Origin: an uncultured Pelagibacteraceae bacterium
Lineage (GTDB): Bacteria; Pseudomonadota; Alphaproteobacteria; Pelagibacterales; Pelagibacteraceae
Direction of reading: 5' to 3'
DNA: 64,000 nucleotides
NCBI GenBank assembly: GCA_902579105.1
Contig: CACHFM010000003.1
Coordinates: 21,622-85,621, forward strand
The position numbers and the translations under genes are program-made. Below the pieces are notes generated by a model that saw only the letters and a program-made list of their open reading frames with translations, was not told the DNA's origin and did no database searches. Below, one piece after another: positions 41,221 to 53,902 of the stretch; the first letter of the stretch is position 1; each line of letters begins with the position of its first letter.

Positions 41221-42546
41221 TTAACAATCTAAAGTATTATCTTTTTCCCATTTTGAAACAGGTTTTGTTTTGTTAAAATTTTCTTTAGACTCAAATTCTT
41301 TAATTTCAGCACCTCTGAGTTTAATATAACTTTCAATCACATTTTTTCCAAAAGCATTGTTCATTTCTTTATTATTTTTAAGTTGGTCTAAGGATTGATT
41401 TAATTCATTAGGTAATTTTGGGAGATTAGGATATTTTTCATGATCAGTATACATATTACAATCTAGTGGTTTTCCAGGATTAATTTTATTCTTCAAACCA
41501 TATAAGCCGGCAGCTAAAACACTTGCTTGTAATAAATATGGATTAGCAGAACCATCCATTAATCTTAATTCAAATCTTCCTGGATCAGGAATTCTAATCA
41601 TGTGAGTTCTGTTATTTCCAGTATAAGAAATACTGCTTGGTGACCATGTTGCACCAGATTTTGTTGGCGGTGCATTTATTCTTCTATAACTATTAATGGT
41701 TGGATTAAAAAAAGCAGATAAAGAAGAAGCATTTTTAATAACTCCTCCTAAAAAATTATAAGCGATTTTACTTAAACCAAGTTTGTCAGATTTATCTAAA
41801 AATATATTTTTCTTTCCTTGCCACACAGAAATATGAGCATGACATCCGTTACCGGTTAAATTTTCAAATGGTTTTGGCATAAATGTTGCTCTTAAACCAT
41901 GTTTTTCAGCAATAGTCTTAACCATATATTTAAAAAAAGTATGCCTATCAGCAGTTTTCAAACAATCTGAGTAATCCCAATTCATTTCAAATTGACCGTT
42001 AGCATCTTCGTGGTCGTTCTGATATGGACCCCATCCCATTTCAATCATGCAATCACATATTTCTTTAATTAGATCATATCTTCTCATTAATGCTGATTGA
42101 TCATAACAAGGTTTAGATTGGGTATCTCTTGGATCTGCTATTGAATTACCATCTTGTGAAATTAAAAAATACTCACATTCTACACCAGATTTCATAGTTA
42201 ATCTTTGCTCTTTAAGTTTTTGAATTTGTTTTTTCAACATAATCCTTGGAGACGCTTCAACTGGTTTACCATTCATCCACAAATCTGATGCCAACCAACC
42301 AACTTCCTTATTCCATGGTAGTTGAATTAAACTATCAGGATCAGGAATACCGAACATATCTGAGTCTGCAGGCGTCATATCAAGCCAAGCAGCAAAACCT
42401 GCAAAACCTGCTCCCGTTACTTGCATTTCTTTAATTGCGTGAATAGGTACTAATTTGGATCTTAAAACACCAAATAAATCAACAAAACTGATTAAAAAGT
42501 ATTTTATTTTTTTTTGCTTTGCAATTTTGAATAAATTTTTAGACAT
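41221..42546 (-). CDS. gmaS: Gamma-glutamylmethylamide synthetase (GlnT/GS-III-like)
   Basis: SFVDLFG..RSKLVP, GAGFAGFA, CYDQSALMR, DHEDANGQFEMNW, SGATWSP; methylamine cluster context. Confidence 0.88.
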   Translation of the reverse strand: MSKNLFKIAKQKKIKYFLISFVDLFGVLRSKLVPIHAIKEMQVTGAGFAGFAAWLDMTPADSDMFGIPDPDSLIQLPWNKEVGWLASDLWMNGKPVEASPRIMLKKQIQKLKEQRLTMKSGVECEYFLISQDGNSIADPRDTQSKPCYDQSALMRRYDLIKEICDCMIEMGWGPYQNDHEDANGQFEMNWDYSDCLKTADRHTFFKYMVKTIAEKHGLRATFMPKPFENLTGNGCHAHISVWQGKKNIFLDKSDKLGLSKIAYNFLGGVIKNASSLSAFFNPTINSYRRINAPPTKSGATWSPSSISYTGNNRTHMIRIPDPGRFELRLMDGSANPYLLQASVLAAGLYGLKNKINPGKPLDCNMYTDHEKYPNLPKLPNELNQSLDQLKNNKEMNNAFGKNVIESYIKLRGAEIKEFESKENFNKTKPVSKWEKDNTLDC

Positions 42547-43013: not shown

Positions 43014-44417
43014 TTATTTGGTTGCAGCTGAAACTGCTTTTTCATCTTCCTTGGCAGTTTCCATTATCTCATAGTCTAATCCAGCTATTTCTACATCACG
43101 AGGGATTCTTAACTTGCCCATTCCGTTTAGTATTTTAGCCAAGATATAGCCTGGTATTAGTCCAAGAACTACGAACATAATAAATGCTCCTATTAATTGT
43201 CCTAACGGATTGATTGATGCATAAGTTGATCCGTCCCACATAGCTCCAACACTGTATCCAGATGAAGGATAGCCATTTAAAACAAATCCACAAATGATTA
43301 GACCAACAACACCAGCATAACCATGTACTGCAACCGCACCAACTGCATCATCAATTTTGAACTTACGTTCAACCCAGTAATGTAGTTTGTATGCAATCAC
43401 AACACCGATCATACCAATAACCATTGCTTGAATTGGATGATATAAATCATTTCCAGCTGAAGCACAGATGATACCTGCTAGTCCACTTGAATAAGTCCAG
43501 AATGGATCACCTTTAGCAATTACATATCCTGCCAATAATCCACCTGATAATGACATCAGGAAGTTCATTGTTATTCCACTAAGCGTAGTGGGGGTTACAT
43601 AAATGTTAGTAGCAGTCCAATATTCTTTTCCTAATCCGTAGTCATCAGGATTACCTACATCGTAAATTGGTATGTTACATGCTGCATAGAATCCCCAGAA
43701 ACCAGTATAAATTAAAAATAATCCAATAGTTACTAGCCATGGGTTTCTTGGCCCTATATTTCTTGGTTCACCACTTGATGTGAATTTTCCAATTCTTGGT
43801 CCTAAAACTATTAGAACACCTAAGGCAAATCCACCAGCAATTGCGTGAATTACACCTGACGCATAAGCATCATGATATCCTAGAAGTTTTAACATCCATC
43901 CATCGAAGTGCCATCCCCAAGCAGCATCAATTGTCCAGAAAACAGATCCAATTGCAATTGCTAAAATTCCAAATGCAAAAGTTGTAATTCTTTCAATAAT
44001 TGCTCCTGATACTATAGAAGCAGCTGTCCATGAGAATAGTAAGAAAGCAGCCCAAAATACACCACTTATGTGATCACCTAAATTGATCGCCATAAATTCA
44101 GTATTTGGAGCGTACCACTTAGCACTAAAAGTACTTTCATCGGTAATCAATGCAGCACTTTCATTCATTATTGATGGGGCTAAACCCGGTCCTGTAGGGA
44201 ATGCCCAGTAAATCCACCAACCAAAGAAAAACCAAGTTACTGTTACCAACGGTATCAGCATTGTATTTTTCATAAGAGTATGTTGGTGATGTTTGTATCG
44301 AGATGCTCCAACCTCATACATACAGAATCCGACGTGAATTAAAAACATCAGTACTACTGTTACCCAGTAGTAAAATTCCGTAAATATGGTTGTAAGAGCT
44401 CCTAACTGATCAGTCAT
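43014..44417 (-). CDS. amt: Ammonium transporter (Amt) family, probably a methylamine permease
   Basis: About 11 TM; IVSGAIIER, twin His (GVIHAIAG, AVHGYAG), DDAVG, LGPRIGKF. Confidence 0.9.
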   Translation of the reverse strand: MTDQLGALTTIFTEFYYWVTVVLMFLIHVGFCMYEVGASRYKHHQHTLMKNTMLIPLVTVTWFFFGWWIYWAFPTGPGLAPSIMNESAALITDESTFSAKWYAPNTEFMAINLGDHISGVFWAAFLLFSWTAASIVSGAIIERITTFAFGILAIAIGSVFWTIDAAWGWHFDGWMLKLLGYHDAYASGVIHAIAGGFALGVLIVLGPRIGKFTSSGEPRNIGPRNPWLVTIGLFLIYTGFWGFYAACNIPIYDVGNPDDYGLGKEYWTATNIYVTPTTLSGITMNFLMSLSGGLLAGYVIAKGDPFWTYSSGLAGIICASAGNDLYHPIQAMVIGMIGVVIAYKLHYWVERKFKIDDAVGAVAVHGYAGVVGLIICGFVLNGYPSSGYSVGAMWDGSTYASINPLGQLIGAFIMFVVLGLIPGYILAKILNGMGKLRIPRDVEIAGLDYEIMETAKEDEKAVSAATK

Positions 44418-44542: not shown

Positions 44543-44947
44543 TTAAAATTTTAAGTAAGCTTTTTTTAAATCAACAAGAGGATGTTTTGGTGACATTTGA
44601 AACTTAACCAATAGCTCTCTTGCAATCATATCTCTATCCTGTTGATTGTTTGGTAATTTAATTGTTTTGGGAATTGTAACCCATCCATTTGCATTTCTGC
44701 AAAATACAGCAGGTCTATCATCTTCGTATCCCATATGAACATCTTCTAACCAATTTAAATCATCCCATCCCATAGCTTCTATATATTTTTTAAGAAACGG
44801 AGTTATTTTACTATAGTCTGGTAAAAGATTAACATCATATCGGTAACCAATTGATTGACCGATCATTTTTTCTCTAGCTGTCTCTTTCTTTTTACCTAAT
44901 TGGCCTTTAATCTGTTTTACTTTCTTTTTATTTTTTTTCTTTGCCAT
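44543..44947 (-). CDS. Hypothetical protein in mgs operon
   Basis: 134 aa, AGGT RBS, 9 bp after mgsC; no family recognised. Confidence 0.75.
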   Translation of the reverse strand: MAKKKNKKKVKQIKGQLGKKKETAREKMIGQSIGYRYDVNLLPDYSKITPFLKKYIEAMGWDDLNWLEDVHMGYEDDRPAVFCRNANGWVTIPKTIKLPNNQQDRDMIARELLVKFQMSPKHPLVDLKKAYLKF

Positions 44948-44956
44948 AGGTTACCT

Positions 44957-46369
44957 TTAAATTTTATGATAGTTATCTACTCCGACTGTATAATTTGTTC
45001 CAGCTAATGGAACTTTTGCTAACGCTGAAGCTTCAGATGTTAATGCAGCTAAATCTTCAGGTTCTAATGAGTGGATATTTGTTTTTCCACAAGCTCTAGC
45101 TAAAAGTTGAGCCTCTAATGTCATAGAATGCAAATAATTGTAAACTCTTAGAGCTGCATCATCTGGATTTAATCTTGCTCTCAATTTAGGATCTTGAGTA
45201 GCAACTCCTACTGGACATCTTCCAGTATGACAGTGATAACATTCACCAGCTTTTACACCCATCTCTTTTTCAAAATTTGCTTCTGGAATATCTTTGTTAC
45301 AATTTAATGCTATCATTGATCCAGTTCCAATAGCTATTGCGTCAGCTCCAAGAGCTAGAGCTTTAGCCATATCAGCGCCATCTCTCACTCCACCAGCATA
45401 AATTAATGTTACTTTTCCAGTTTTACCTACATCATCGATTGCTCTTCTTGCTTCTCTAATTGCAGCAATTCCAGGAATACCAGTATTTGCAGCAGCAATG
45501 TGAGGTCCAGCACCAGTAGATCCTTCCATTCCATCTAAATAGATAGAGTCAGGGTCACATTTTGCGGCCATTCGAACATCATCATAAACTTTTGAAGCTC
45601 CAAGTTTTAATTGAATTGGAACTTTATTTTTAGTTAGTTGTCTTAATTCTTCTACTTTAAGAGCAAGATCGTCTGGGCCTAGCCAGTCAGGGTGTCTTGC
45701 AGGTGATCTTTGATCAATTCCAGATGGCAATGATCTCATTTCAGCAACTTGGTCAGTCACTTTTTGACCCATTAAGTGTCCACCCATTCCAACTTTTTGA
45801 CCTTGTCCAATAAAAACTTCAATTCCATCTGCAAGTTGGGCATGATGCGGATTAAAACCATATCTTGATTGAATACATTGATAGTACCATTTTTCTGAAT
45901 ATCTTCTTTCGTCAGGTATCATTCCACCTTCTCCAGAACAAGTAGCGCTTCCAGCCATAGTGGCTCCTCTAGCTAAAGCTGTTTTTGCTTCGTAAGATAA
46001 TGCTCCAAAACTCATACCAGTTATGTAGACAGGTATATCTAACTCGATTGGGTTTTCACATCTTGGGCCAATTACAGTTTTTGTTTCACATTTTTCTCTG
46101 TAACCCTCGATTACAAATCTAGTAAGTGTTCCCGGCAAAAAAACTAAATCATCAAACGTAGGAATTTTTTTCATTAGTGCCATACCACGCATTCTATATC
46201 TTCCTAATTGAGATTTAATATGAATGTCGTCTATTACTTCTGGTGTAAAAATAGCATTGTACCCTAATAAACTTTTATTTCTTTTGCCCTCTTCATGAGC
46301 ATGAACATCTGCTTTTCCTCCGACACCTTTTCCATTTTTTTTAACTTTTTTAATTTTTTTCTTAGGCAT
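44957..46369 (-). CDS. mgsC: N-methylglutamate synthase FMN subunit (GlxD/MgsC)
   Basis: GMSFGALS, SGEGG, GQGQKVGMGG, SPARHPD, DGMEGSTG, GGVRDGAD, CYHCHTGRCPVGVATQD. Confidence 0.88.
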   Translation of the reverse strand: MPKKKIKKVKKNGKGVGGKADVHAHEEGKRNKSLLGYNAIFTPEVIDDIHIKSQLGRYRMRGMALMKKIPTFDDLVFLPGTLTRFVIEGYREKCETKTVIGPRCENPIELDIPVYITGMSFGALSYEAKTALARGATMAGSATCSGEGGMIPDERRYSEKWYYQCIQSRYGFNPHHAQLADGIEVFIGQGQKVGMGGHLMGQKVTDQVAEMRSLPSGIDQRSPARHPDWLGPDDLALKVEELRQLTKNKVPIQLKLGASKVYDDVRMAAKCDPDSIYLDGMEGSTGAGPHIAAANTGIPGIAAIREARRAIDDVGKTGKVTLIYAGGVRDGADMAKALALGADAIAIGTGSMIALNCNKDIPEANFEKEMGVKAGECYHCHTGRCPVGVATQDPKLRARLNPDDAALRVYNYLHSMTLEAQLLARACGKTNIHSLEPEDLAALTSEASALAKVPLAGTNYTVGVDNYHKI

Positions 46370-47223
46370 TAAATTGCTCCCTTCTTCTCTGTAGGTTCTA
46401 AATTATCATAATTCCAAAGTTTTTTACCTGCTACAATTTTTTTCATTTTACTTACATCAAAATTTTCACCAATTTCTGCAACTTTTAATTTTCTTTTTAA
46501 CCAATCTTGATCACCTGGTGTTAATTCCGCATCAACAGCATCACTACCATATGAGCCAATTTCTCCACCTATGAAAATTGTCCCATCGTACATAGAGTCT
46601 CCTAAATTTATTCCAACATCACCAAGAATAATTATTCTTCCTCTTTGCATCATAAATCCTGTAAATGCACCAGCATCGCCTCCGACAATAATAGTTCCAC
46701 CTTTCATATCAATACCAGTTCTCGCACCAACACTACCTTTACAAATTAAATCACCACCTCTAATAGCAGCCCCAAAACATGAACCTGCATTTTTTTCAAT
46801 AACAACTTTGCCAGCCATTAAATTTTCTGCACATGACCAGCCAACTCGTCCATTAATTCTTACAATAGGACCATCACACGAACCCATGCCAAAATATCCT
46901 AAACTTCCTTCGAAAATTAAATTTAATTTATTTAAAATACCTACTCCCAAACTATGTTTTCCTTGGGGGTTTTTAATAACAATTGTTCCATAACCTTGAC
47001 TCATTAAATTATCTATTTCTTTATTTGCTTCTGGTGCAGTCATGTTTTTTACATCAAGCTCTGTTCTTTTATTAAAGTCAACATCGTAAGTTCCAAAATA
47101 ATAAAAGTTTTCAGCTTCATCAGGATTAAAAAACTTCTGTTGAGTTCTTCCAGTTAAAACTTCAGTATGCATCCCCATTGATTGGGATTTAGATTTTTTC
47201 TCACTTGTTTTTAGATTTGCCAT
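46369..47223 (-). CDS. mgsB: N-methylglutamate synthase GXGXG subunit (GlxC/MgsB)
   Basis: Beta-helix GXGXG repeats (GSLGYFG, NAGSCFG, GARTG, GAFTGFMMQRG); start overlaps the mgsA stop. Confidence 0.87.
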   Translation of the reverse strand: MANLKTSEKKSKSQSMGMHTEVLTGRTQQKFFNPDEAENFYYFGTYDVDFNKRTELDVKNMTAPEANKEIDNLMSQGYGTIVIKNPQGKHSLGVGILNKLNLIFEGSLGYFGMGSCDGPIVRINGRVGWSCAENLMAGKVVIEKNAGSCFGAAIRGGDLICKGSVGARTGIDMKGGTIIVGGDAGAFTGFMMQRGRIIILGDVGINLGDSMYDGTIFIGGEIGSYGSDAVDAELTPGDQDWLKRKLKVAEIGENFDVSKMKKIVAGKKLWNYDNLEPTEKKGAI

Positions 47224-48155
47224 ACTTTTACCTCACCATCAAATGGATCATATGTATCAATTTCTTGAGGAAGAATTGATCTGATTGCTATTTCTTCTGA
47301 ACCCATTGCAACTAAATCATCTGACTCATAAAGAACCAAAGGTTTTGCTGCCATAGTATCTTTCGCCATTCCTAAAGAGTCTTTAGTTGCAACAAAATAT
47401 GTAAAAACTCCATCAAGACCAGCTAAGGACTCTTTCATTCCTTCTTCAAGTGTTGCTCCTTCCCTCATTTTTTGAGCTATATAAACTGCGATTAATTCTG
47501 AATCACATTCAGACATAAATCTCATACCTTTGTTTTCTAAAGCTCTTCTATTATTCCAATAGTTTGTTAGTTGTCCGTTGTGAACTACTGATACGTCACT
47601 AAAAGGATATCCCCAAAAAGGATGAGCAGATTTAATGTCAACTCCAGACTCAGTTGCCATTCTTGCATGACCAATAGCGTGTGTACCTACTAGTTTATCT
47701 AAATCATATTTATCACAAACCATTTTGGCATTACCTAGATCTTTGATTACTTCTAATGATTTACCCATAGAAAGAATTTCAACACCTGGAATACTTTCAA
47801 TTTTTTGTGAAAATTCTAAGAGGTCTTTTGTATCATAATCAATTTCATATCTTAATGAGTAGGGCAGAGTTCTTTCTTCTTTGACAATTTTTGCTCCCAT
47901 TTCAGCAAGATGTTGATCAACTATTTTTTTTCTTTCATCATAAACAGAAATATCTTCCATAACTGACGAACTTCCTTCGCCAACATTTTCTCCAACTTTA
48001 AAACGCATGATAAAATTTTTACCATCAGTATCGCCATACAAAGCATAGCCAGTTGAGTCTTCACCTCTATGTTTTAATGCTTGAAGCATACCTTGAAGTT
48101 CACTTCCAACGTTTGAAGATTTACCTCTATGAATTAATCCTGCAATTCCGCACAT
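47211..48155 (-). CDS. mgsA: N-methylglutamate synthase amidotransferase subunit (GlxB/MgsA)
   Basis: Ntn-hydrolase MCGIAG, HRGEDSTG, GHARMATES, VHNGQLTN, CDSE. Confidence 0.88.
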   Translation of the reverse strand: MCGIAGLIHRGKSSNVGSELQGMLQALKHRGEDSTGYALYGDTDGKNFIMRFKVGENVGEGSSSVMEDISVYDERKKIVDQHLAEMGAKIVKEERTLPYSLRYEIDYDTKDLLEFSQKIESIPGVEILSMGKSLEVIKDLGNAKMVCDKYDLDKLVGTHAIGHARMATESGVDIKSAHPFWGYPFSDVSVVHNGQLTNYWNNRRALENKGMRFMSECDSELIAVYIAQKMREGATLEEGMKESLAGLDGVFTYFVATKDSLGMAKDTMAAKPLVLYESDDLVAMGSEEIAIRSILPQEIDTYDPFDGEVKVWQI

Positions 48156-48184: not shown

Positions 48185-49654
48185 CTATGGTAGACAATCA
48201 AGATAAGTGTCCAGATCCCATTGAGTTGTTGCACCTAAAAATTTTTCCCATTCATCATTTTTATACCAATGAAATATTTTATACATTTCATCAGGCATTG
48301 CAGATTGAATAACTTTATCTTCTGATAGTCTATCCAAAGCTTCCCCTAGACTTAAAGGTAATTTTTTAACATTTTTTCCTGCTTTTTGAGCTTCATAGAT
48401 ATTTCTTGATTCTGGTTTTCCAGGGTCAAGGTTGTTAGTTAATCCATCATCAAATGCTTTTAATAATGAAGCACCCATTAAATAAGGATTGTGCATTGAG
48501 TCTACTGAACGGTATTCAAATCTACCTGGAGCAGAAACTCTCAAACCACAAGTTCTGTTTTGGTAACCCCAATCAGCATAAACAGGAGCCCAAAAACCTT
48601 GGTCCCATAATCTTCTGTAAGAATTTACAGTTGATGAACCAATAGCTGTAAGTGCTGGAAGATGTTTCATAACACCACCAATAGATTTTAATCCAATTTT
48701 TCCTGGCAATTGAACGTCTTTAGTATCGGGCATAAAAGTATTAGTTCCACCTTCAACATAGCTAAATACTTCATCCATCCCTGGCAGTGATTTGTGGCCT
48801 AGTTTGTTTACTTTATCTTTTCCACCTGTCCATAAAGACATATTAGTATGACAACCACTAGCAGATACTCCCATAAATGGTTTTGTCATAAAACAAGCAA
48901 TTAAATTAAACTCTCTTGCTACTTGAGCGCATATTTGTCTATAAGTTGATAATCTATCCGCATTTCTCAATACATCGTCAAACATCCAGTTTAATTCTAA
49001 TTGTCCAGGAGCATCCTCATGATCACCTTGAATCATGTCAAAACCCATTGCACGAGCGTATTCCATTACCTTCATAAACACTGGTCTTAAAGACTCAAAT
49101 TGATCAATATGATAACAGTATGGTTTTGAAAAACCTTTGCCAGTAGGTGTTCCATCTTCATTTCTTGTTAACCACATCATTTCTGGCTCAGTTCCAACTC
49201 TTAGCTGATAGCCATGTTTTTTCTTAAATTCTTTAGCTATAATTCTTAAATTACCTCTACAGTCAGATGTTAAGTGACCACCTGGGTTTACTCTTTCTTC
49301 TCTATTTCTAAAACAAGTTACAAAAACTCTAGCTACTTTTTTATCCCAAGGTAATTGACAGAAAGTTTCTGGATCAGGAATCCCGACGAGCTCTTTTGCT
49401 TCTGGTCCATATCCAATGTAATTATTATGACGATCTAAAAATAAGTTTGCAGTAGCTCCATAAACTAATTGAAAACCTTTTTCACAAGTTCTTTCCCAAT
49501 GGTCAGCAGGAATTCCTTTACCAACAACTCTTCCTGTTACTGAAATGAATTGAAAAAAAATATAATCAATTTTAAGTTCATTAATTTTTGCTCTAACTTG
49601 TTTTACCAGTTTAGCTCTTCCTGGCTGGTTAACATGTTTTTCTAGATCTGTCAT
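48185..49654 (-). CDS. Second glutamine-synthetase-family gamma-glutamyl:amine ligase
   Basis: GTEPEMMW, DHEDAPGQLELN, KPFMGVSASGCH, NSYRRL, NRT, EYRSVD; Glu flap replaced (QGFWAP). Confidence 0.88.
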   Translation of the reverse strand: MTDLEKHVNQPGRAKLVKQVRAKINELKIDYIFFQFISVTGRVVGKGIPADHWERTCEKGFQLVYGATANLFLDRHNNYIGYGPEAKELVGIPDPETFCQLPWDKKVARVFVTCFRNREERVNPGGHLTSDCRGNLRIIAKEFKKKHGYQLRVGTEPEMMWLTRNEDGTPTGKGFSKPYCYHIDQFESLRPVFMKVMEYARAMGFDMIQGDHEDAPGQLELNWMFDDVLRNADRLSTYRQICAQVAREFNLIACFMTKPFMGVSASGCHTNMSLWTGGKDKVNKLGHKSLPGMDEVFSYVEGGTNTFMPDTKDVQLPGKIGLKSIGGVMKHLPALTAIGSSTVNSYRRLWDQGFWAPVYADWGYQNRTCGLRVSAPGRFEYRSVDSMHNPYLMGASLLKAFDDGLTNNLDPGKPESRNIYEAQKAGKNVKKLPLSLGEALDRLSEDKVIQSAMPDEMYKIFHWYKNDEWEKFLGATTQWDLDTYLDCLP

Positions 49655-49725
49655 TTTCTACCTCTTTAAAATATTTTATTAATTAAAGCGTAACTGAAAA
49701 AATTATTAGTGTCTAGACTTCAAGA

Positions 49726-51051
49726 TCAACTCCAAGGGAAGGGACTGTTCGAAGTAGGGTGAAGTTCACCTTTCTCGTATCGGTTGAATCTAAAAGGTTT
49801 TAATAAATCGCTCTCAGTACCTAGAATTTCTTTTGCAACAAGTTCACCAACTCCGATCATCTTATAACCATGATTAGCATCTGCAATCATGTAAACATTT
49901 TCTAAAAATCTATCAAAAATTGGAAAAGAGTCTGGAGTCATACACCCAAGACCACCTGATGGACCTTTTCTATATAAATCACTTTTACCTTCAAATCTCT
50001 TTTGACAATGTGCTAAAGCTGAACACCACATATCATTGAAAGCTTCTGTAGTTTGATATTCAGGTGAATCTAAACCATATGGATCAACATTTACTTCATC
50101 AAAATGTTTATTAACAATATATGGTGAAGTTCCACCTTGAACTCCTAAACCTTCAATGTCTGGTTTATAATAAATTCCCCAAATTTTGTCAGTAATTAGT
50201 TTTTTAGTTTTATCTGAATATAACGGCGCTGTTGAATCAACATGAATTACTGGCGGTTGTTTACCATTATTCATTTTTAAAAAATCTGGTTCAACACCAA
50301 TTACACCTTCTTGAAGAAACCAATATTTCCACATATCAGTTTCGTGAATCTTACCATCTTTACCTTTAATTTTTGCAGTTTTAGGAAGTTCTAACATATT
50401 CCAAAAATCTCTAGCCCATGGACCTGCACCAACAACTACTTGTTCACATTCTATAGTGCCTTTGTTAGTTTCTACTCCTGTAACAGCTTTACTATTACTT
50501 CCTCGTTTAAATCCTGTGACTTTAATTCCTTTAAGTACGCTTACACCATTTGCAGTAGATTTATTTTCTAGAGCTTTAATTGAATCTTTATTAAATGCAT
50601 AACCACCTTTCTTCTCATGAAGCACAGATGTTATTCCTTGAGCTTGCCAATCATCAAACATTCCTTTCATGTAATTCATGCAATCTTTTTCACCTTCTAT
50701 AAATTCAGATTCATAACCTATTGCTTTCTGTTGCTCATAAATTGAAGCAACATCTTCATGCATAACTTCTGGCGATATTTGTAAATAACCCACTGGATTA
50801 TATTTAAAAGCTTTTGGATCGCTTTCCCAAACTGAAACTGAATGAGCCATTAATTCTCTCATTGCTGGTTGAAAATAATTATTTCTAACAACACCGCAGG
50901 CAATTCCGCTAGCTCCTGCAGCTGTATCTTTTTTTTCTAAAACGATAATGTCACCTGGGTTTTTATATGTTTCTGAAAGCTTCCAAGCGGTGCTTAATCC
51001 ATGAATTCCACCACCTATAATTACCACTTTAGCCTTTTTAGGTATCGCCAT
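49726..51051 (-). CDS. FAD-dependent amine oxidoreductase (SoxB/MgdA/monomeric sarcosine oxidase-like)
   Basis: GGGIHG, GASGIACG, GAGPWA, TPDSFP, HGYKM; start moved to ATG 51051 (MAIPKK) from the track's 51087. Confidence 0.85.
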   Translation of the reverse strand: MAIPKKAKVVIIGGGIHGLSTAWKLSETYKNPGDIIVLEKKDTAAGASGIACGVVRNNYFQPAMRELMAHSVSVWESDPKAFKYNPVGYLQISPEVMHEDVASIYEQQKAIGYESEFIEGEKDCMNYMKGMFDDWQAQGITSVLHEKKGGYAFNKDSIKALENKSTANGVSVLKGIKVTGFKRGSNSKAVTGVETNKGTIECEQVVVGAGPWARDFWNMLELPKTAKIKGKDGKIHETDMWKYWFLQEGVIGVEPDFLKMNNGKQPPVIHVDSTAPLYSDKTKKLITDKIWGIYYKPDIEGLGVQGGTSPYIVNKHFDEVNVDPYGLDSPEYQTTEAFNDMWCSALAHCQKRFEGKSDLYRKGPSGGLGCMTPDSFPIFDRFLENVYMIADANHGYKMIGVGELVAKEILGTESDLLKPFRFNRYEKGELHPTSNSPFPWS

Positions 51052-51097
51052 CAAAAAAAATTTTAATTTTTCTAGCAACAATAACAATAATAAAAAT

Positions 51098-51118
51098 TAT
51101 ATATATAATATATATATA
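51098..51118. promoter_or_regulatory. TA-palindrome, putative operator copy 1
   Basis: TATATATAT-AAT-ATATATATA upstream of the SoxB-like gene; same architecture at 53882. Confidence 0.4.
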
Positions 51119-51136
51119 GAGAATAATCTAAACTCT

Positions 51137-51487
51137 CTAATAACTAAGATTTTTTAAAGTATTTAAATAATCACTAAATTCATCAATAAAAGACTGACTT
51201 GGTCTAATATTCTTTATTCGCTGATCAGTTGAGGTTTTTTCTAGTATAAAAAAACCTTTTTCACAAGCTTCTGTAATTATTAGAGCTGATTTGGGTCTTG
51301 AAGTTTTAAATAATTTAGTTTTTAGCTCTTCAACTGATAATTTTTCACTATTATGAAAAGCTGACATTACTAATAACATCATGTGATAATGCGAGGGAGA
51401 TTTTCTAAAAAAATAATTACTCGAAGTATGAGAATGTCTCATTTGATCTTCCCAAAAATTTAATAATGTTTGCTTATTTTTTTTCAC
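51137..51487 (-). CDS. Small winged-helix (MarR-like) protein, putative regulator
   Basis: GTG start; KLSVEELKTKL..SRPKSALIITEACEKGFF..DQRIKNIRPS resembles a wHTH with the D-x-R wing. Confidence 0.6.
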   Translation of the reverse strand: MKKNKQTLLNFWEDQMRHSHTSSNYFFRKSPSHYHMMLLVMSAFHNSEKLSVEELKTKLFKTSRPKSALIITEACEKGFFILEKTSTDQRIKNIRPSQSFIDEFSDYLNTLKNLSY

Positions 51488-51491
51488 TTAT

Positions 51492-53828
51492 TTAAGTTCT
51501 AACTCTAGTTTTTTGTGGATCATAATGTGGAAATCCAACTACTTTTGCTGAGATTCTTTTTTGTTCTCCATCAATTTTTCCAACTTCAACTTCAGTACCT
51601 ATCTCAGAATGGCCAATATCAATTCTACACAAAGCTATATTTTTATTAAGTGTTGGAGAAATACATCCACTTGTTATAATTCCTACTTGAGCCCTTCCAA
51701 TATGTACGCAATCACCATGATTAGCTTTTTCTTTACTGATTAATTCAAGTCCAACTAATTTTTTTTGTGGGTTTTCTTTTCTTTTAATTAAACTTTCTTT
51801 TCCAATAAAGTCATCAGTTTTAGTTTTTAAAGGAACAGTAAAACCAACTCCTGCTTCAAAAGGATCAACCTGTCCATCAAATTCATTTCCAAAAAGAATT
51901 AATCCAGCTTCAATTCTTAACAAATCTAATGCGCCAAAGCCTGCTGGTATTAAACCTTCATCTTTACCTGCTTCTATAACTTTATCCCATACTTTAGGAG
52001 CATCAGATGGGTGGCACCAAATTTCATATCCTAACTCGCCTGTATATCCTGTTCTTGAAACTATTAAAGGTATTCCGTTTAATTCTTCAAGTCTACAAAT
52101 AGTAAACCTAAACCATTGCAATTCGGAAATAGAAGGTTGAGTTGGTGGAGTAAAAATAATTTTTTCTAATATTTTTCTACTATTTGGTCCTTGTAAAGAA
52201 ATATTATTAATTTGATCAGTAGAATCTTTAATTAAAACTTTATAATTTTTCTTTTTAGCCTGTTCTTTTAACCATTGACCTGCATATTCATCACCACAAA
52301 TCCATCTAAAACCATGGTCACTTAGTTTCAAAAGCGTTCCATCATCAAACATTGTTCCATTTTCATAACACATAGAAGAATAAACAACCTGACCAACTGA
52401 AAGTTTTTTTATGTTTCTAGTTAATGTATAATTCATTAATTCTTCAGCATCTGGACCAAGTATTTCAAATTTTCTTAAAGATGATAGGTCAATAACAACA
52501 GCTTTTTCACGACAAGCCATATGCTCGTTTATTATTCCATGATTTGTGTAATCATTAGGTAACCAAAAACCTCTAGCCTCAACAAAGTTTCTTGTTAGCT
52601 TAGATGTTTTTTCGTAAAAACCTGTATTTCTAGTTAATTTTGTTTCAGAGTCAGTTTTCATTCTAAAAGCAAAAGATTTTCTAAATTCTTTTTTTTTATC
52701 ATAAGTTCTAACAAAAATATCTGTAGGATTCCATGAATTACATGCATCTATATCACTTGGGCATGCTGTTGTTCCACAAGTCAAATCTTTAAGAGCCTTA
52801 AACATTACATAATCTCCAGGTCTAGCAAAAGATTCATCTGATAATACTGAATTAAGTCCTCCAGCTGAGGTATTAAAAAATAAATTTATAGCATGCCAAC
52901 CTTTTTTTTTCTGAACTCCAAACTTTTCCATAGATTCATTTAAATTGTCGGAACAATTTGGATGACCAAAATATCCTGAGTCTTCATAATATTTGGATGT
53001 ACATGCTAAATTAAATGTATCATGCCTTCCGACTGTGTCTCTAATTACTTCAACTAAAGGTTCATGGTCAGTATCGTAAAATTTAGAAAATAATCCTGGT
53101 CCTGGAAAAGTATTTCCCATAAAGGTTCTAGTTGTTTGCCAATCAAGACCTTTTTCAATTTTTTTGTCTAATTTAGCTGTATCAAATGCAACAAAATCTG
53201 AGCACTGCCTTCCAGTGGGAGAAATAACTTGAATGTAATCACCTTCTTTAACTTGAAAAGAAATTGCAGTTTGACGGTCTATATTTGTTTCACTTTTAGG
53301 TTCAAAGATTGGGTTAGGAATTATTGAGTGCTCTTTATCTCTAGTAATTTTTGCTCTTTTTATGAAAATAGTTAGATTAGTTGTTGGATTTTGTTCATGA
53401 ATCATCATTTCTTGACCAGGAGCAGAAAAGATACAATAACATTTGTCTTTAGCTTTTAGTTTTACTTTTTCATGAGGTTTTGAGTCTTTATCAAAAACAA
53501 TTGCAGACTTAGATGCATTGATATCTAAATTTCTTTTTTTTAATTGATACGAAGCTGCAAGCGAACTCTCAATTTTTTTTGAAAGTATTGTTTTTATTTC
53601 AGATGAACTTTTGTTTTCTTTTAGATTTAATATAGCTAGTTCAGATTTTCCATCTTTATTAAAGACTGTAATTTCGCAAATTTGATTTCCTTCATCATTT
53701 ACTATTTCTATTTCATCATCTGGAAGTATTTGAATACCTGTTAAACCTCCTCCATTAACAACATGTCTTTCAACTCCAAGTGGTAAAGCATTTAAACCTG
53801 GCTCTTTAATGTCTAAACTTGTAAGCAT
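51492..53828 (-). CDS. tdm: Trimethylamine N-oxide demethylase (DUF1989 + GcvT fusion)
   Basis: GRQCSDF, RHDTFNLAC, HPNCSDN, TACP in the DUF1989 part; DLSSLRKFE and SRTGYTGELGYE in the GcvT part; divergent from tmoX. Confidence 0.9.
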   Translation of the reverse strand: MLTSLDIKEPGLNALPLGVERHVVNGGGLTGIQILPDDEIEIVNDEGNQICEITVFNKDGKSELAILNLKENKSSSEIKTILSKKIESSLAASYQLKKRNLDINASKSAIVFDKDSKPHEKVKLKAKDKCYCIFSAPGQEMMIHEQNPTTNLTIFIKRAKITRDKEHSIIPNPIFEPKSETNIDRQTAISFQVKEGDYIQVISPTGRQCSDFVAFDTAKLDKKIEKGLDWQTTRTFMGNTFPGPGLFSKFYDTDHEPLVEVIRDTVGRHDTFNLACTSKYYEDSGYFGHPNCSDNLNESMEKFGVQKKKGWHAINLFFNTSAGGLNSVLSDESFARPGDYVMFKALKDLTCGTTACPSDIDACNSWNPTDIFVRTYDKKKEFRKSFAFRMKTDSETKLTRNTGFYEKTSKLTRNFVEARGFWLPNDYTNHGIINEHMACREKAVVIDLSSLRKFEILGPDAEELMNYTLTRNIKKLSVGQVVYSSMCYENGTMFDDGTLLKLSDHGFRWICGDEYAGQWLKEQAKKKNYKVLIKDSTDQINNISLQGPNSRKILEKIIFTPPTQPSISELQWFRFTICRLEELNGIPLIVSRTGYTGELGYEIWCHPSDAPKVWDKVIEAGKDEGLIPAGFGALDLLRIEAGLILFGNEFDGQVDPFEAGVGFTVPLKTKTDDFIGKESLIKRKENPQKKLVGLELISKEKANHGDCVHIGRAQVGIITSGCISPTLNKNIALCRIDIGHSEIGTEVEVGKIDGEQKRISAKVVGFPHYDPQKTRVRT

Positions 53829-53881: not shown

Positions 53882-53902
53882 TATATATATAAAATATATA
53901 TA
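53882..53902. promoter_or_regulatory. TA-palindrome, putative operator copy 2 (tdm/tmoX divergent region)
   Basis: TATATATAT-AAA-ATATATATA, ending 7 bp upstream of the tmoX -35. Confidence 0.4.

Follow-up and report, generated by a model that had tools for sequence, protein, structure and literature searches.

A stand-alone DAO-family flavoprotein of SAR11 bacteria encoded next to a second, paralogous GmaS-Mgs-like module

Introduction

No bacterial group is more abundant in the surface ocean than SAR11, and methylated amines matter both as a source of nitrogen and as precursors of aerosols. In this work we describe a gene, here labelled DAOx, that encodes a 441-residue flavoprotein at positions 49726-51051 (minus strand) of a 64,000-nucleotide stretch of DNA (hereafter, the window) from an uncultured Pelagibacteraceae bacterium (assembly GCA_902579105.1, contig CACHFM010000003.1), together with the genes that surround it.

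In HTCC1062, the published gene order runs from SAR11_1302 (transporter) through 1303 (aminomethyltransferase, Tdm), 1304 ('monomeric sarcosine oxidase') and 1305 (glnT) to 1308 (gltB2), 1310 (amt), 1313-1315 (glxBCD), 1316 (glnT) and 1317 (ygeX) (PMC3870248, PMC3160333). The stand-alone SAR11_1304 gene and two sox operons were already recorded by Sun 2011 (PMC3160333), where the characterised N-methylglutamate synthase best matched SAR11_1313-1315 and not the genes beside SAR11_1304. Both this study and Smith 2013 (PMC3870248) took SAR11_1304 to be monomeric and speculated that it might demethylate amines; in the latter, the protein was found exclusively in HTCC1062 cells limited for nitrogen, demethylation or deamination of amines was speculated on, with a deaminase suggested by I-TASSER, and the missing dimethylamine (DMA) step of SAR11 was pointed out. 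Further, SAR11 was shown to be without dmmDABC (Lidbury 2017, PMC5520151). A description of SAR11_1304 as monomeric and induced by nitrogen limitation thus already exists (Sun 2011, Smith 2013).

Judged by gene order (synteny), DAOx would be the orthologue of SAR11_1304. New are the finding that the genes next to DAOx form a paralogous module, the location of DAOx directly upstream of it in about 28 sampled Alphaproteobacteria, and the near-exclusivity, among genomes with Tdm, between the module and a marker of the dimethylamine monooxygenase Dmm. With a probability that we put at about one half, DAOx acts on its own as an oxidase or dehydrogenase that demethylates N-methyl amino acids, the likeliest of them being N-methylglutamate (NMG).

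Results

DAOx is a separate subfamily of the DAO fold

The window has a G+C content of about 30% and comes from a genome of Pelagibacter (SAR11) type (1.22 Mb, 39 contigs, 92.7% complete). As in an earlier note on this DNA, DAOx is a single open reading frame (ORF); it has an ATG start, which is backed by an alignment of 22 homologues (alignment A1), and it carries the motif KTAKIKGKDGKIHETD at residues 224-239. The nearest loci are those of other Pelagibacteraceae, at 85-95% protein identity, and the homologues, at least 8000 in number, are marine. A genome-contig search with DAOx returned SAR11 loci only, a protein search of a plasmid collection gave no match at E <= 1e-40, and the protein Atlas clusters offered the generic name 'FAD-binding oxidoreductase' only.

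With 119.2 bits against the Pfam model DAO (PF01266; gathering threshold 27.9), the protein belongs to the DAO family; it displays the GxGxxG site for flavin adenine dinucleotide (FAD) and the two-domain fold of that family. An AlphaFold (AF2) model built from alignment A1 reached a predicted local distance difference test (pLDDT) value of 90.9 and a predicted template modelling (pTM) score of 0.91. The top Foldseek matches to this model were the SoxB beta subunit, which came first, the PDH1 beta subunit, DMGO/DMGDH and MSOX, at 16-21% identity and template modelling (TM) scores of 0.7-0.8, with structural matches to DAO-family proteins extending over the full length; glycine oxidase and L-amino-acid deaminase matched more weakly in profile, Protein Data Bank (PDB) sequence and Foldseek searches. 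Since SoxB beta, PDH1 beta, DMGO/DMGDH and MSOX match about equally well, DAOx is a separate subfamily of the DAO or sarcosine-oxidase-like fold. The view of a stand-alone flavoprotein with such a fold was thus borne out; N-substituted amino acids are what the nearest relatives by structure all oxidise.

The same protein had been called SoxB-like, which holds for the FAD-binding parts and fails for the rest. The Pfam DAO match is confined to residues 8-221; the NCBIfam soxB model (TIGR01373) gave 79.4 bits (cut-off 529.45), matching residues 7-209 only, which places DAOx outside that family; and in PDB sequence searches SoxB beta aligned with residues 4-210 and about 366-430 only. His173 of SoxB (2GAG_B), which carries the covalent flavin mononucleotide (FMN) at the alpha/beta interface, is Asn154 in DAOx, and Asn is found family-wide at this position. 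An internal insertion had also been noted. It is not peculiar to DAOx: KTAKIKGKDGKIHETD (50335-50382, minus strand) is kept across the whole family in alignment A1, where it is part of an enlarged substrate domain: the central segment, residues 211-365, is about 58 residues longer than its SoxB counterpart (229-325), and residues 224-239 were modelled as a confident beta-hairpin with strands at 225-229 and 235-239.

Active-site residues were placed by motif alignment. Arg56 (VVRNNY) and Lys397 (NHGYK) are near-invariant in alignment A1, and the two motifs align with IIRSNY and GGFK of SoxB. In MSOX and SoxB, the Arg and Lys of these motifs bind the substrate carboxylate; their conservation in DAOx is a hint that the substrate is an amino acid with an N-substituent and not a bare amine. 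By the same kind of alignment, Cys370 (GCMTPD) stands at the motif position of the cysteine that bears covalent FAD, Cys315 of MSOX with its 8-alpha-S-cysteinyl attachment; in several orthologues the residue is Ala.

One metagenomic protein (P0001, 666 residues, 94% identical to DAOx) combines DAO and Gln-synt_C domains; it has one member, on one contig, and may either result from read-through or represent a genuine fusion between DAOx and its neighbour GS*, described below.

SoxBDAG operons lie elsewhere in the genome

The earlier note had described only one subunit. This stands for the locus: no soxD, soxA or soxG adjoins DAOx among the locus ORFs searched with Pfam and NCBIfam, and in place of a soxB-D-A-G (mgdABCD) operon the gene is flanked by a 116-residue ORF and a GS-like gene, a stand-alone arrangement that recurs in 80 loci of SAR11 and in over 25 genomes besides. 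It does not stand for the genome, where a search found two complete soxB-D-A-G operons (C7:11347-16414 and C3:91130-96209), the latter about 18.5 kb from DAOx and just beyond the window edge, as well as several DMGDH/SARDH-type genes. The alpha subunit of the C3 operon shares 69.5% identity with a SoxA-type gene that directly adjoins the canonical mgsABC of the related genome G030 (1.4 Mb, locus L151), which makes this operon the best candidate for an N-methylglutamate dehydrogenase.

These operons bear on the idea that DAOx could be a genuine beta subunit of SoxB/MgdA type, drawing SoxD, SoxA and SoxG from elsewhere. Two sets of partners are indeed encoded, one of them close by, and SoxB beta heads the Foldseek list. 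Nevertheless, each operon has its own SoxB (706 and 671 bits to the soxB model), and the shortfall of DAOx against that model (79 against 529 bits), the change of His173 to Asn154 and the substrate domain larger by about 58 residues leave this idea with hardly any likelihood. On the failed family score and the absent FMN-binding His, a SoxB/MgdA orthologue that had lost SoxDAG was likewise rejected; of the earlier suggestion, a monomeric oxidase of NMG or another N-methyl amino acid survives as our leading reading, by virtue of the fold and of a synteny of the NMG-forming type, and not as a SoxB/MgdA deprived of SoxDAG.

A paralogous GS*-Mgs*ABC-o134 module adjoins DAOx

Along the minus strand, from upstream to downstream, the locus comprises Tdm, the 116-residue ORF, DAOx, GS*, Mgs*A-B-C, o134, Amt, a type III glutamine synthetase (GS; 441 residues) and a diaminopropionate-ammonia-lyase-like gene, and the features given below all lie on this strand. 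The trimethylamine N-oxide (TMAO) demethylase Tdm (51492-53828) scored 1108 bits with NF053776 (cut-off 1100). GS* (48185-49654) is a GmaS-like putative amine ligase of 489 residues and a paralogue of canonical GmaS. Then follow Mgs*A (47211-48155), a class II amidotransferase subunit by Pfam GATase_6/7 that is syntenic in loci L133-L152; Mgs*B (46369-47223), a GXGXG subunit by Pfam GXGXG and synteny; Mgs*C (44957-46369), an FMN-type glutamate-synthase-like subunit (Pfam Glu_synthase, 298 bits); and o134 (44543-44947), a conserved 134-residue protein that always comes after Mgs*C. The Amt-type channel (43014-44417) is a frequent companion of the module, which orthologues with 62-69% identity adjoin in at least 8 loci. 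The type III GS of 441 residues (41221-42546) is canonical GmaS, a gamma-glutamylmethylamide synthetase (TIGR03105, 623 bits).

The neighbours of DAOx had been named gmaS and mgsABC, which is half right, as they are paralogues of these genes. Canonical GmaS matched the solved structures of RhGmaS (7CQL) and 9QUR with 562 and 345 bits, and GS* with only 162 and 173 bits, so GS*, which its position has usually caused to be named gmaS, is not a canonical GmaS. Compared with the residue list of PMC7948447, our reading of the GS* sequence places a Trp where the Glu-flap has its Glu; Y147, Q175, D177, E179, E186 and N188 of GmaS are kept, and the ammonium-site features of true GS are absent. By these residues, GS* still resembles an amine ligase and not a glutamine synthetase. 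Across alphaproteobacterial families GS* is 68-77% and Mgs*C 78-87% identical, the latter showing 53% identity to the canonical MgsC of G030. We had considered that Mgs*C might be set apart by an Fe-S-type Cys motif and take electrons from DAOx; this was dropped, as the canonical MgsC of G030 has the motif too. The protein o134 has no family match in Pfam or NCBIfam, and was found 69-80% identical and syntenic in every module copy examined, including copies without DAOx.

In the window's genome, which is 92.7% complete, no canonical mgsABC (the glxBCD genes in HTCC1062) was found, and Amt is directly followed by gmaS. Among 80 SAR11 loci, Amt is followed by gmaS in 45 and by canonical mgsA in 17, and the Mgs*/GS* module is present in every SAR11 locus long enough to show it. 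The DAOx-adjacent 'gmaS-mgsABC' is a second, paralogous module, previously unrecognised.

Two further observations concern the module. Another unassigned protein, of about 200 residues, often comes next after o134 in non-SAR11 genomes, and one genome (L172; G084:C104:1234-4212) has, besides the regular module, a second GS* paralogue (about 60% identity) by another GS-like gene.

Distribution, genomic contexts and phylogeny

DAOx orthologues (48-93% identity) were present in 39 genomes of an even sample of 401 Alphaproteobacteria, and a phylum-wide sample held one carrier outside this class. In 17 of 20 loci fetched from different families, DAOx-GS*-Mgs*A-B-C-o134 lie in this order on one strand, and in the alphaproteobacterial sample DAOx is directly upstream of the module in about 28 genomes altogether. 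A divergent GntR/FCD regulator and Amt often accompany the cluster, and canonical GmaS is found in 26 of 38 DAOx carriers. DAOx was found next to tdm only in SAR11 and in a single further lineage, and the earlier suggestion that the GcvT domain of Tdm is borrowed for one-carbon (C1) capture found no support.

Copies of DAOx apart from the module adjoin Rieske GbcA-like oxygenases, a BHMT-like methyltransferase with an OYE-type flavoprotein, an SHMT-like gene or a gamma-glutamyltranspeptidase. In a maximum-likelihood (ML) tree, obtained by a quick search with Shimodaira-Hasegawa-like approximate likelihood ratio test (SH-aLRT) support only, these copies are interspersed among the in-cluster ones, and a distant clade is split off with full support. 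Taken together, the module-free contexts and the interspersed tree positions point to an N-methyl amino acid as the substrate of DAOx. The distant clade has 34-42% identity in the alphaproteobacterial sample. In L153-L159 (34-40%; G270, G063, G039, G155, G300, G382, G079) its members adjoin membrane proteins that resemble fatty-acid desaturases, joined in some of the genomes by BHMT-like methyltransferases; these neighbours gave no functional clue.

The module-free contexts also lend themselves to another explanation, namely that DAOx is a monomeric sarcosine or dimethylglycine oxidase that yields glycine and C1 units from the breakdown of glycine betaine and has nothing to do with its neighbours. 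Genes of betaine catabolism (Rieske GbcA-like, BHMT-like, SHMT-like) stand beside copies of the same clade, the fold is MSOX-like, and SAR11_1304 is so annotated in HTCC1062. We consider this improbable: the NCBIfam soxA_mon subfamily model for MSOX-type enzymes (TIGR01377) gave 41.4 bits against a cut-off of 479.65, so that DAOx falls outside this subfamily; identity to MSOX is only 16-19%; the synteny of DAOx with GS*-Mgs*ABC is tight and widespread; and the genome already holds the two SoxBDAG operons and several genes of DMGDH/SARDH type.

A deaminating amino-acid or amine oxidase or dehydrogenase, similar to glycine oxidase or DadA, would release ammonia under nitrogen limitation and leave the amine or ammonia set free to GS* or Amt. 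The induction of SAR11_1304 specifically under nitrogen limitation and the I-TASSER suggestion (Smith 2013, PMC3870248) agree with such an enzyme, as do the weaker matches to glycine oxidase and L-amino-acid deaminase. The top structural and profile matches, however, are demethylating or secondary-amine enzymes, GS* is devoid of the ammonium-site features of true GS, and the genomic contexts all concern methylated nitrogen compounds, all of which renders deamination a very improbable role.

Co-occurrence with Tdm and a dimethylamine marker

DAOx is strongly enriched in genomes with Tdm, being found in 19 of the 33 Tdm-bearing Alphaproteobacteria and in 20 of the 368 others. Among these 33 genomes, 23 have only the GS* module, 6 only PF11927 (a DmmC/HODM-alpha marker that is broader than Dmm), 1 both and 3 neither (Fisher p = 5e-4, for genomes that are related and not independent, in groups assembled during the analysis); one of the 3 with neither is only 75% complete. 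Counted by family, Tdm bearers have the module only in 15 cases, PF11927 only in 4, both in 1 and neither in 1. For DAOx itself against PF11927 the trend is weaker (p = 0.11). A profile search did not find PF11927 in the window's own genome (92.7% complete). Module and PF11927 are thus almost mutually exclusive among Tdm genomes, which is a lead, not a proof.

This pattern raises the question of whether DAOx provides the DMA-demethylating step that SAR11, lacking dmmDABC, is without. In one variant, DAOx would turn DMA directly into monomethylamine (MMA) and formaldehyde, with MMA taken up by GS*; in the other, DMA would be gamma-glutamylated and transferred to give N,N-dimethylglutamate, which DAOx would demethylate to NMG for MgdABCD. 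The SAR11 order tdm-DAOx-GS*-Mgs*ABC is colinear with a succession from TMAO through DMA, MMA and gamma-glutamylmethylamide (GMA) to NMG, RhGmaS accepts DMA, albeit weakly, and the DMA gap of SAR11 is acknowledged in the literature (PMC5520151, PMC3870248). A DMA role would also account for the co-occurrence with Mgd, for the second ligase/synthase set and for the complementarity with Dmm, to which the lack of PF11927 in the window's genome conforms. Against it, the complementarity belongs to the GS* module and not to DAOx, and is drawn from related genomes; 6 Tdm-bearing genomes have the module without DAOx, and 20 of the 39 DAOx carriers have no Tdm; the conserved Arg/Lys pair suggests a carboxylate substrate and not free DMA; the amine-pocket residues of GS* are those of MMA-specific GmaS; and there is no evidence of DMA oxidation by SAR11 (PMC5520151). 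Overall, we regard a role in DMA demethylation as unlikely, though less so than the other alternatives to an N-methyl-amino-acid enzyme.

Small ORFs and upstream DNA

Between tdm and DAOx lies the 116-residue ORF (51137-51487, minus strand), which has no Pfam or NCBIfam match and is kept there in nearly all SAR11 loci examined. A 21-bp TA palindrome upstream of the DAOx gene (51098-51118) has a one-mismatch copy between tdm and tmoX (53882-53902), these two being the sole sites within 2 mismatches in the window; a palindrome of similar type precedes DAOx in 45 of 78 SAR11 loci. A scan of 49500-51600 for consensus promoters and terminators scored no better than shuffled sequence, so the sequence does not show a separate transcription unit for DAOx.

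Discussion

We favour a single-subunit, single-flavin (FAD) enzyme, an oxidase or dehydrogenase by which N-methyl amino acids are demethylated. DAOx would take an N-methylated alpha-amino acid and oxidise the C-N bond of its N-methyl group, yielding the free amino acid and formaldehyde, with electrons passing to O2 or another acceptor. The GS*-Mgs*ABC-o134 module is expected to convert a small amine into an N-alkyl-glutamate, and because of this adjoining module NMG would be the likeliest substrate, with sarcosine-type side activities possible. Both the structural relatives and the gene synteny of NMG type have led us to place NMG or another N-methyl amino acid first. DAOx also appears to be separately regulated for nitrogen scavenging, a role that the detection of SAR11_1304 only under nitrogen limitation (Smith 2013) fits.

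Several observations weigh against this proposal and keep its probability near one half. SoxA/MgdC-type heterotetramer genes are present in 36 of 38 DAOx carriers, often within 5-15 kb, which indicates that DAOx does not generally replace Mgd, next to which an NMG oxidase would be redundant. Gene content varies in both directions, as 6 genomes have the module without DAOx (GntR, then GS*-Mgs*ABC-o134) and at least 6 good genomes have DAOx without the GS* module. In HTCC1062, the induction of SAR11_1304 was not accompanied by that of its partners GS* and Mgs*C (Smith 2013, PMC3870248), and we found no substrate test or experimental characterisation of DAOx or SAR11_1304 in the literature. Finally, the carboxylate argument is a motif alignment at about 20% identity combined with residue roles carried over from MSOX and SoxB.

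Regardless of its substrate, DAOx is a separate enzyme family and not a stray SoxB subunit, and its SAR11_1304 counterpart is strongly nitrogen-regulated. Canonical mgsABC is often absent in SAR11, while the paralogous module is kept in all sufficiently long loci. These results give concrete candidate genes and substrates for the gain of nitrogen and C1 units from methylamines by marine bacteria. Should the less probable DMA route prove true, DAOx and the module would constitute the missing DMA catabolism of SAR11 and of other bacteria with Tdm and without Dmm, and the 'DMA bottleneck' that has been proposed for the sea would no longer exist.

Comparison with known systems

SoxB/MgdA (TIGR01373) is the best structural match of DAOx (TM 0.71-0.80), and the two share the two-domain DAO fold, the N-terminal FAD site and a C-terminal ...GxK motif. 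DAOx differs from it in identity (19-20%), in being without the covalent-FMN His, in a central domain longer by about 58 residues and in having no adjoining soxD/A/G, with genuine SoxB genes elsewhere in the genome. Similarly, MSOX (PDB 1EL5, 2GB0) is a single subunit of the same fold (TM about 0.7-0.8) with the Arg and Lys motifs; in contrast, DAOx is 16-19% identical and about 50 residues longer.

The best profile match, at 98.5 bits, is PDH1, the beta subunit of Pyrococcus L-proline dehydrogenase (1Y56_B), which oxidises the secondary amine of an amino acid; unlike DAOx, it is part of an alpha4beta4 complex, and the FAD-binding portions alone align. DMGO and DMGDH (PDB 1PJ5, 4PAB), which demethylate a tertiary N-methyl amino acid, share the fold in their N-terminal flavin domain, whereas the C-terminal GcvT-like tetrahydrofolate domain of DMGO is missing from DAOx.

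In the Puu pathway, the gene of the DAO-family oxidase PuuB lies beside that of a GS-like gamma-glutamyl ligase, a pathway logic analogous to that of DAOx-GS*. The likeness does not extend to the sequences: in BLASTP, DAOx matched E. coli PuuB with 35.8 bits over 51 residues, covering the dinucleotide-binding motif only and not the full length, and GS* is 25% identical to PuuA. A Puu-like reading, in which the oxidase would act on an amine after its gamma-glutamylation, was dropped, both for want of any real likeness to PuuB and because flavin amine oxidases use amide N-methyl groups poorly. Lastly, the dimethylamine monooxygenase DmmDABC/HODM is a possible functional alternative, its marker being nearly exclusive with the GS* module in genomes with Tdm, and differs from DAOx in being an unrelated haem-PAS oxygenase with a reductase.

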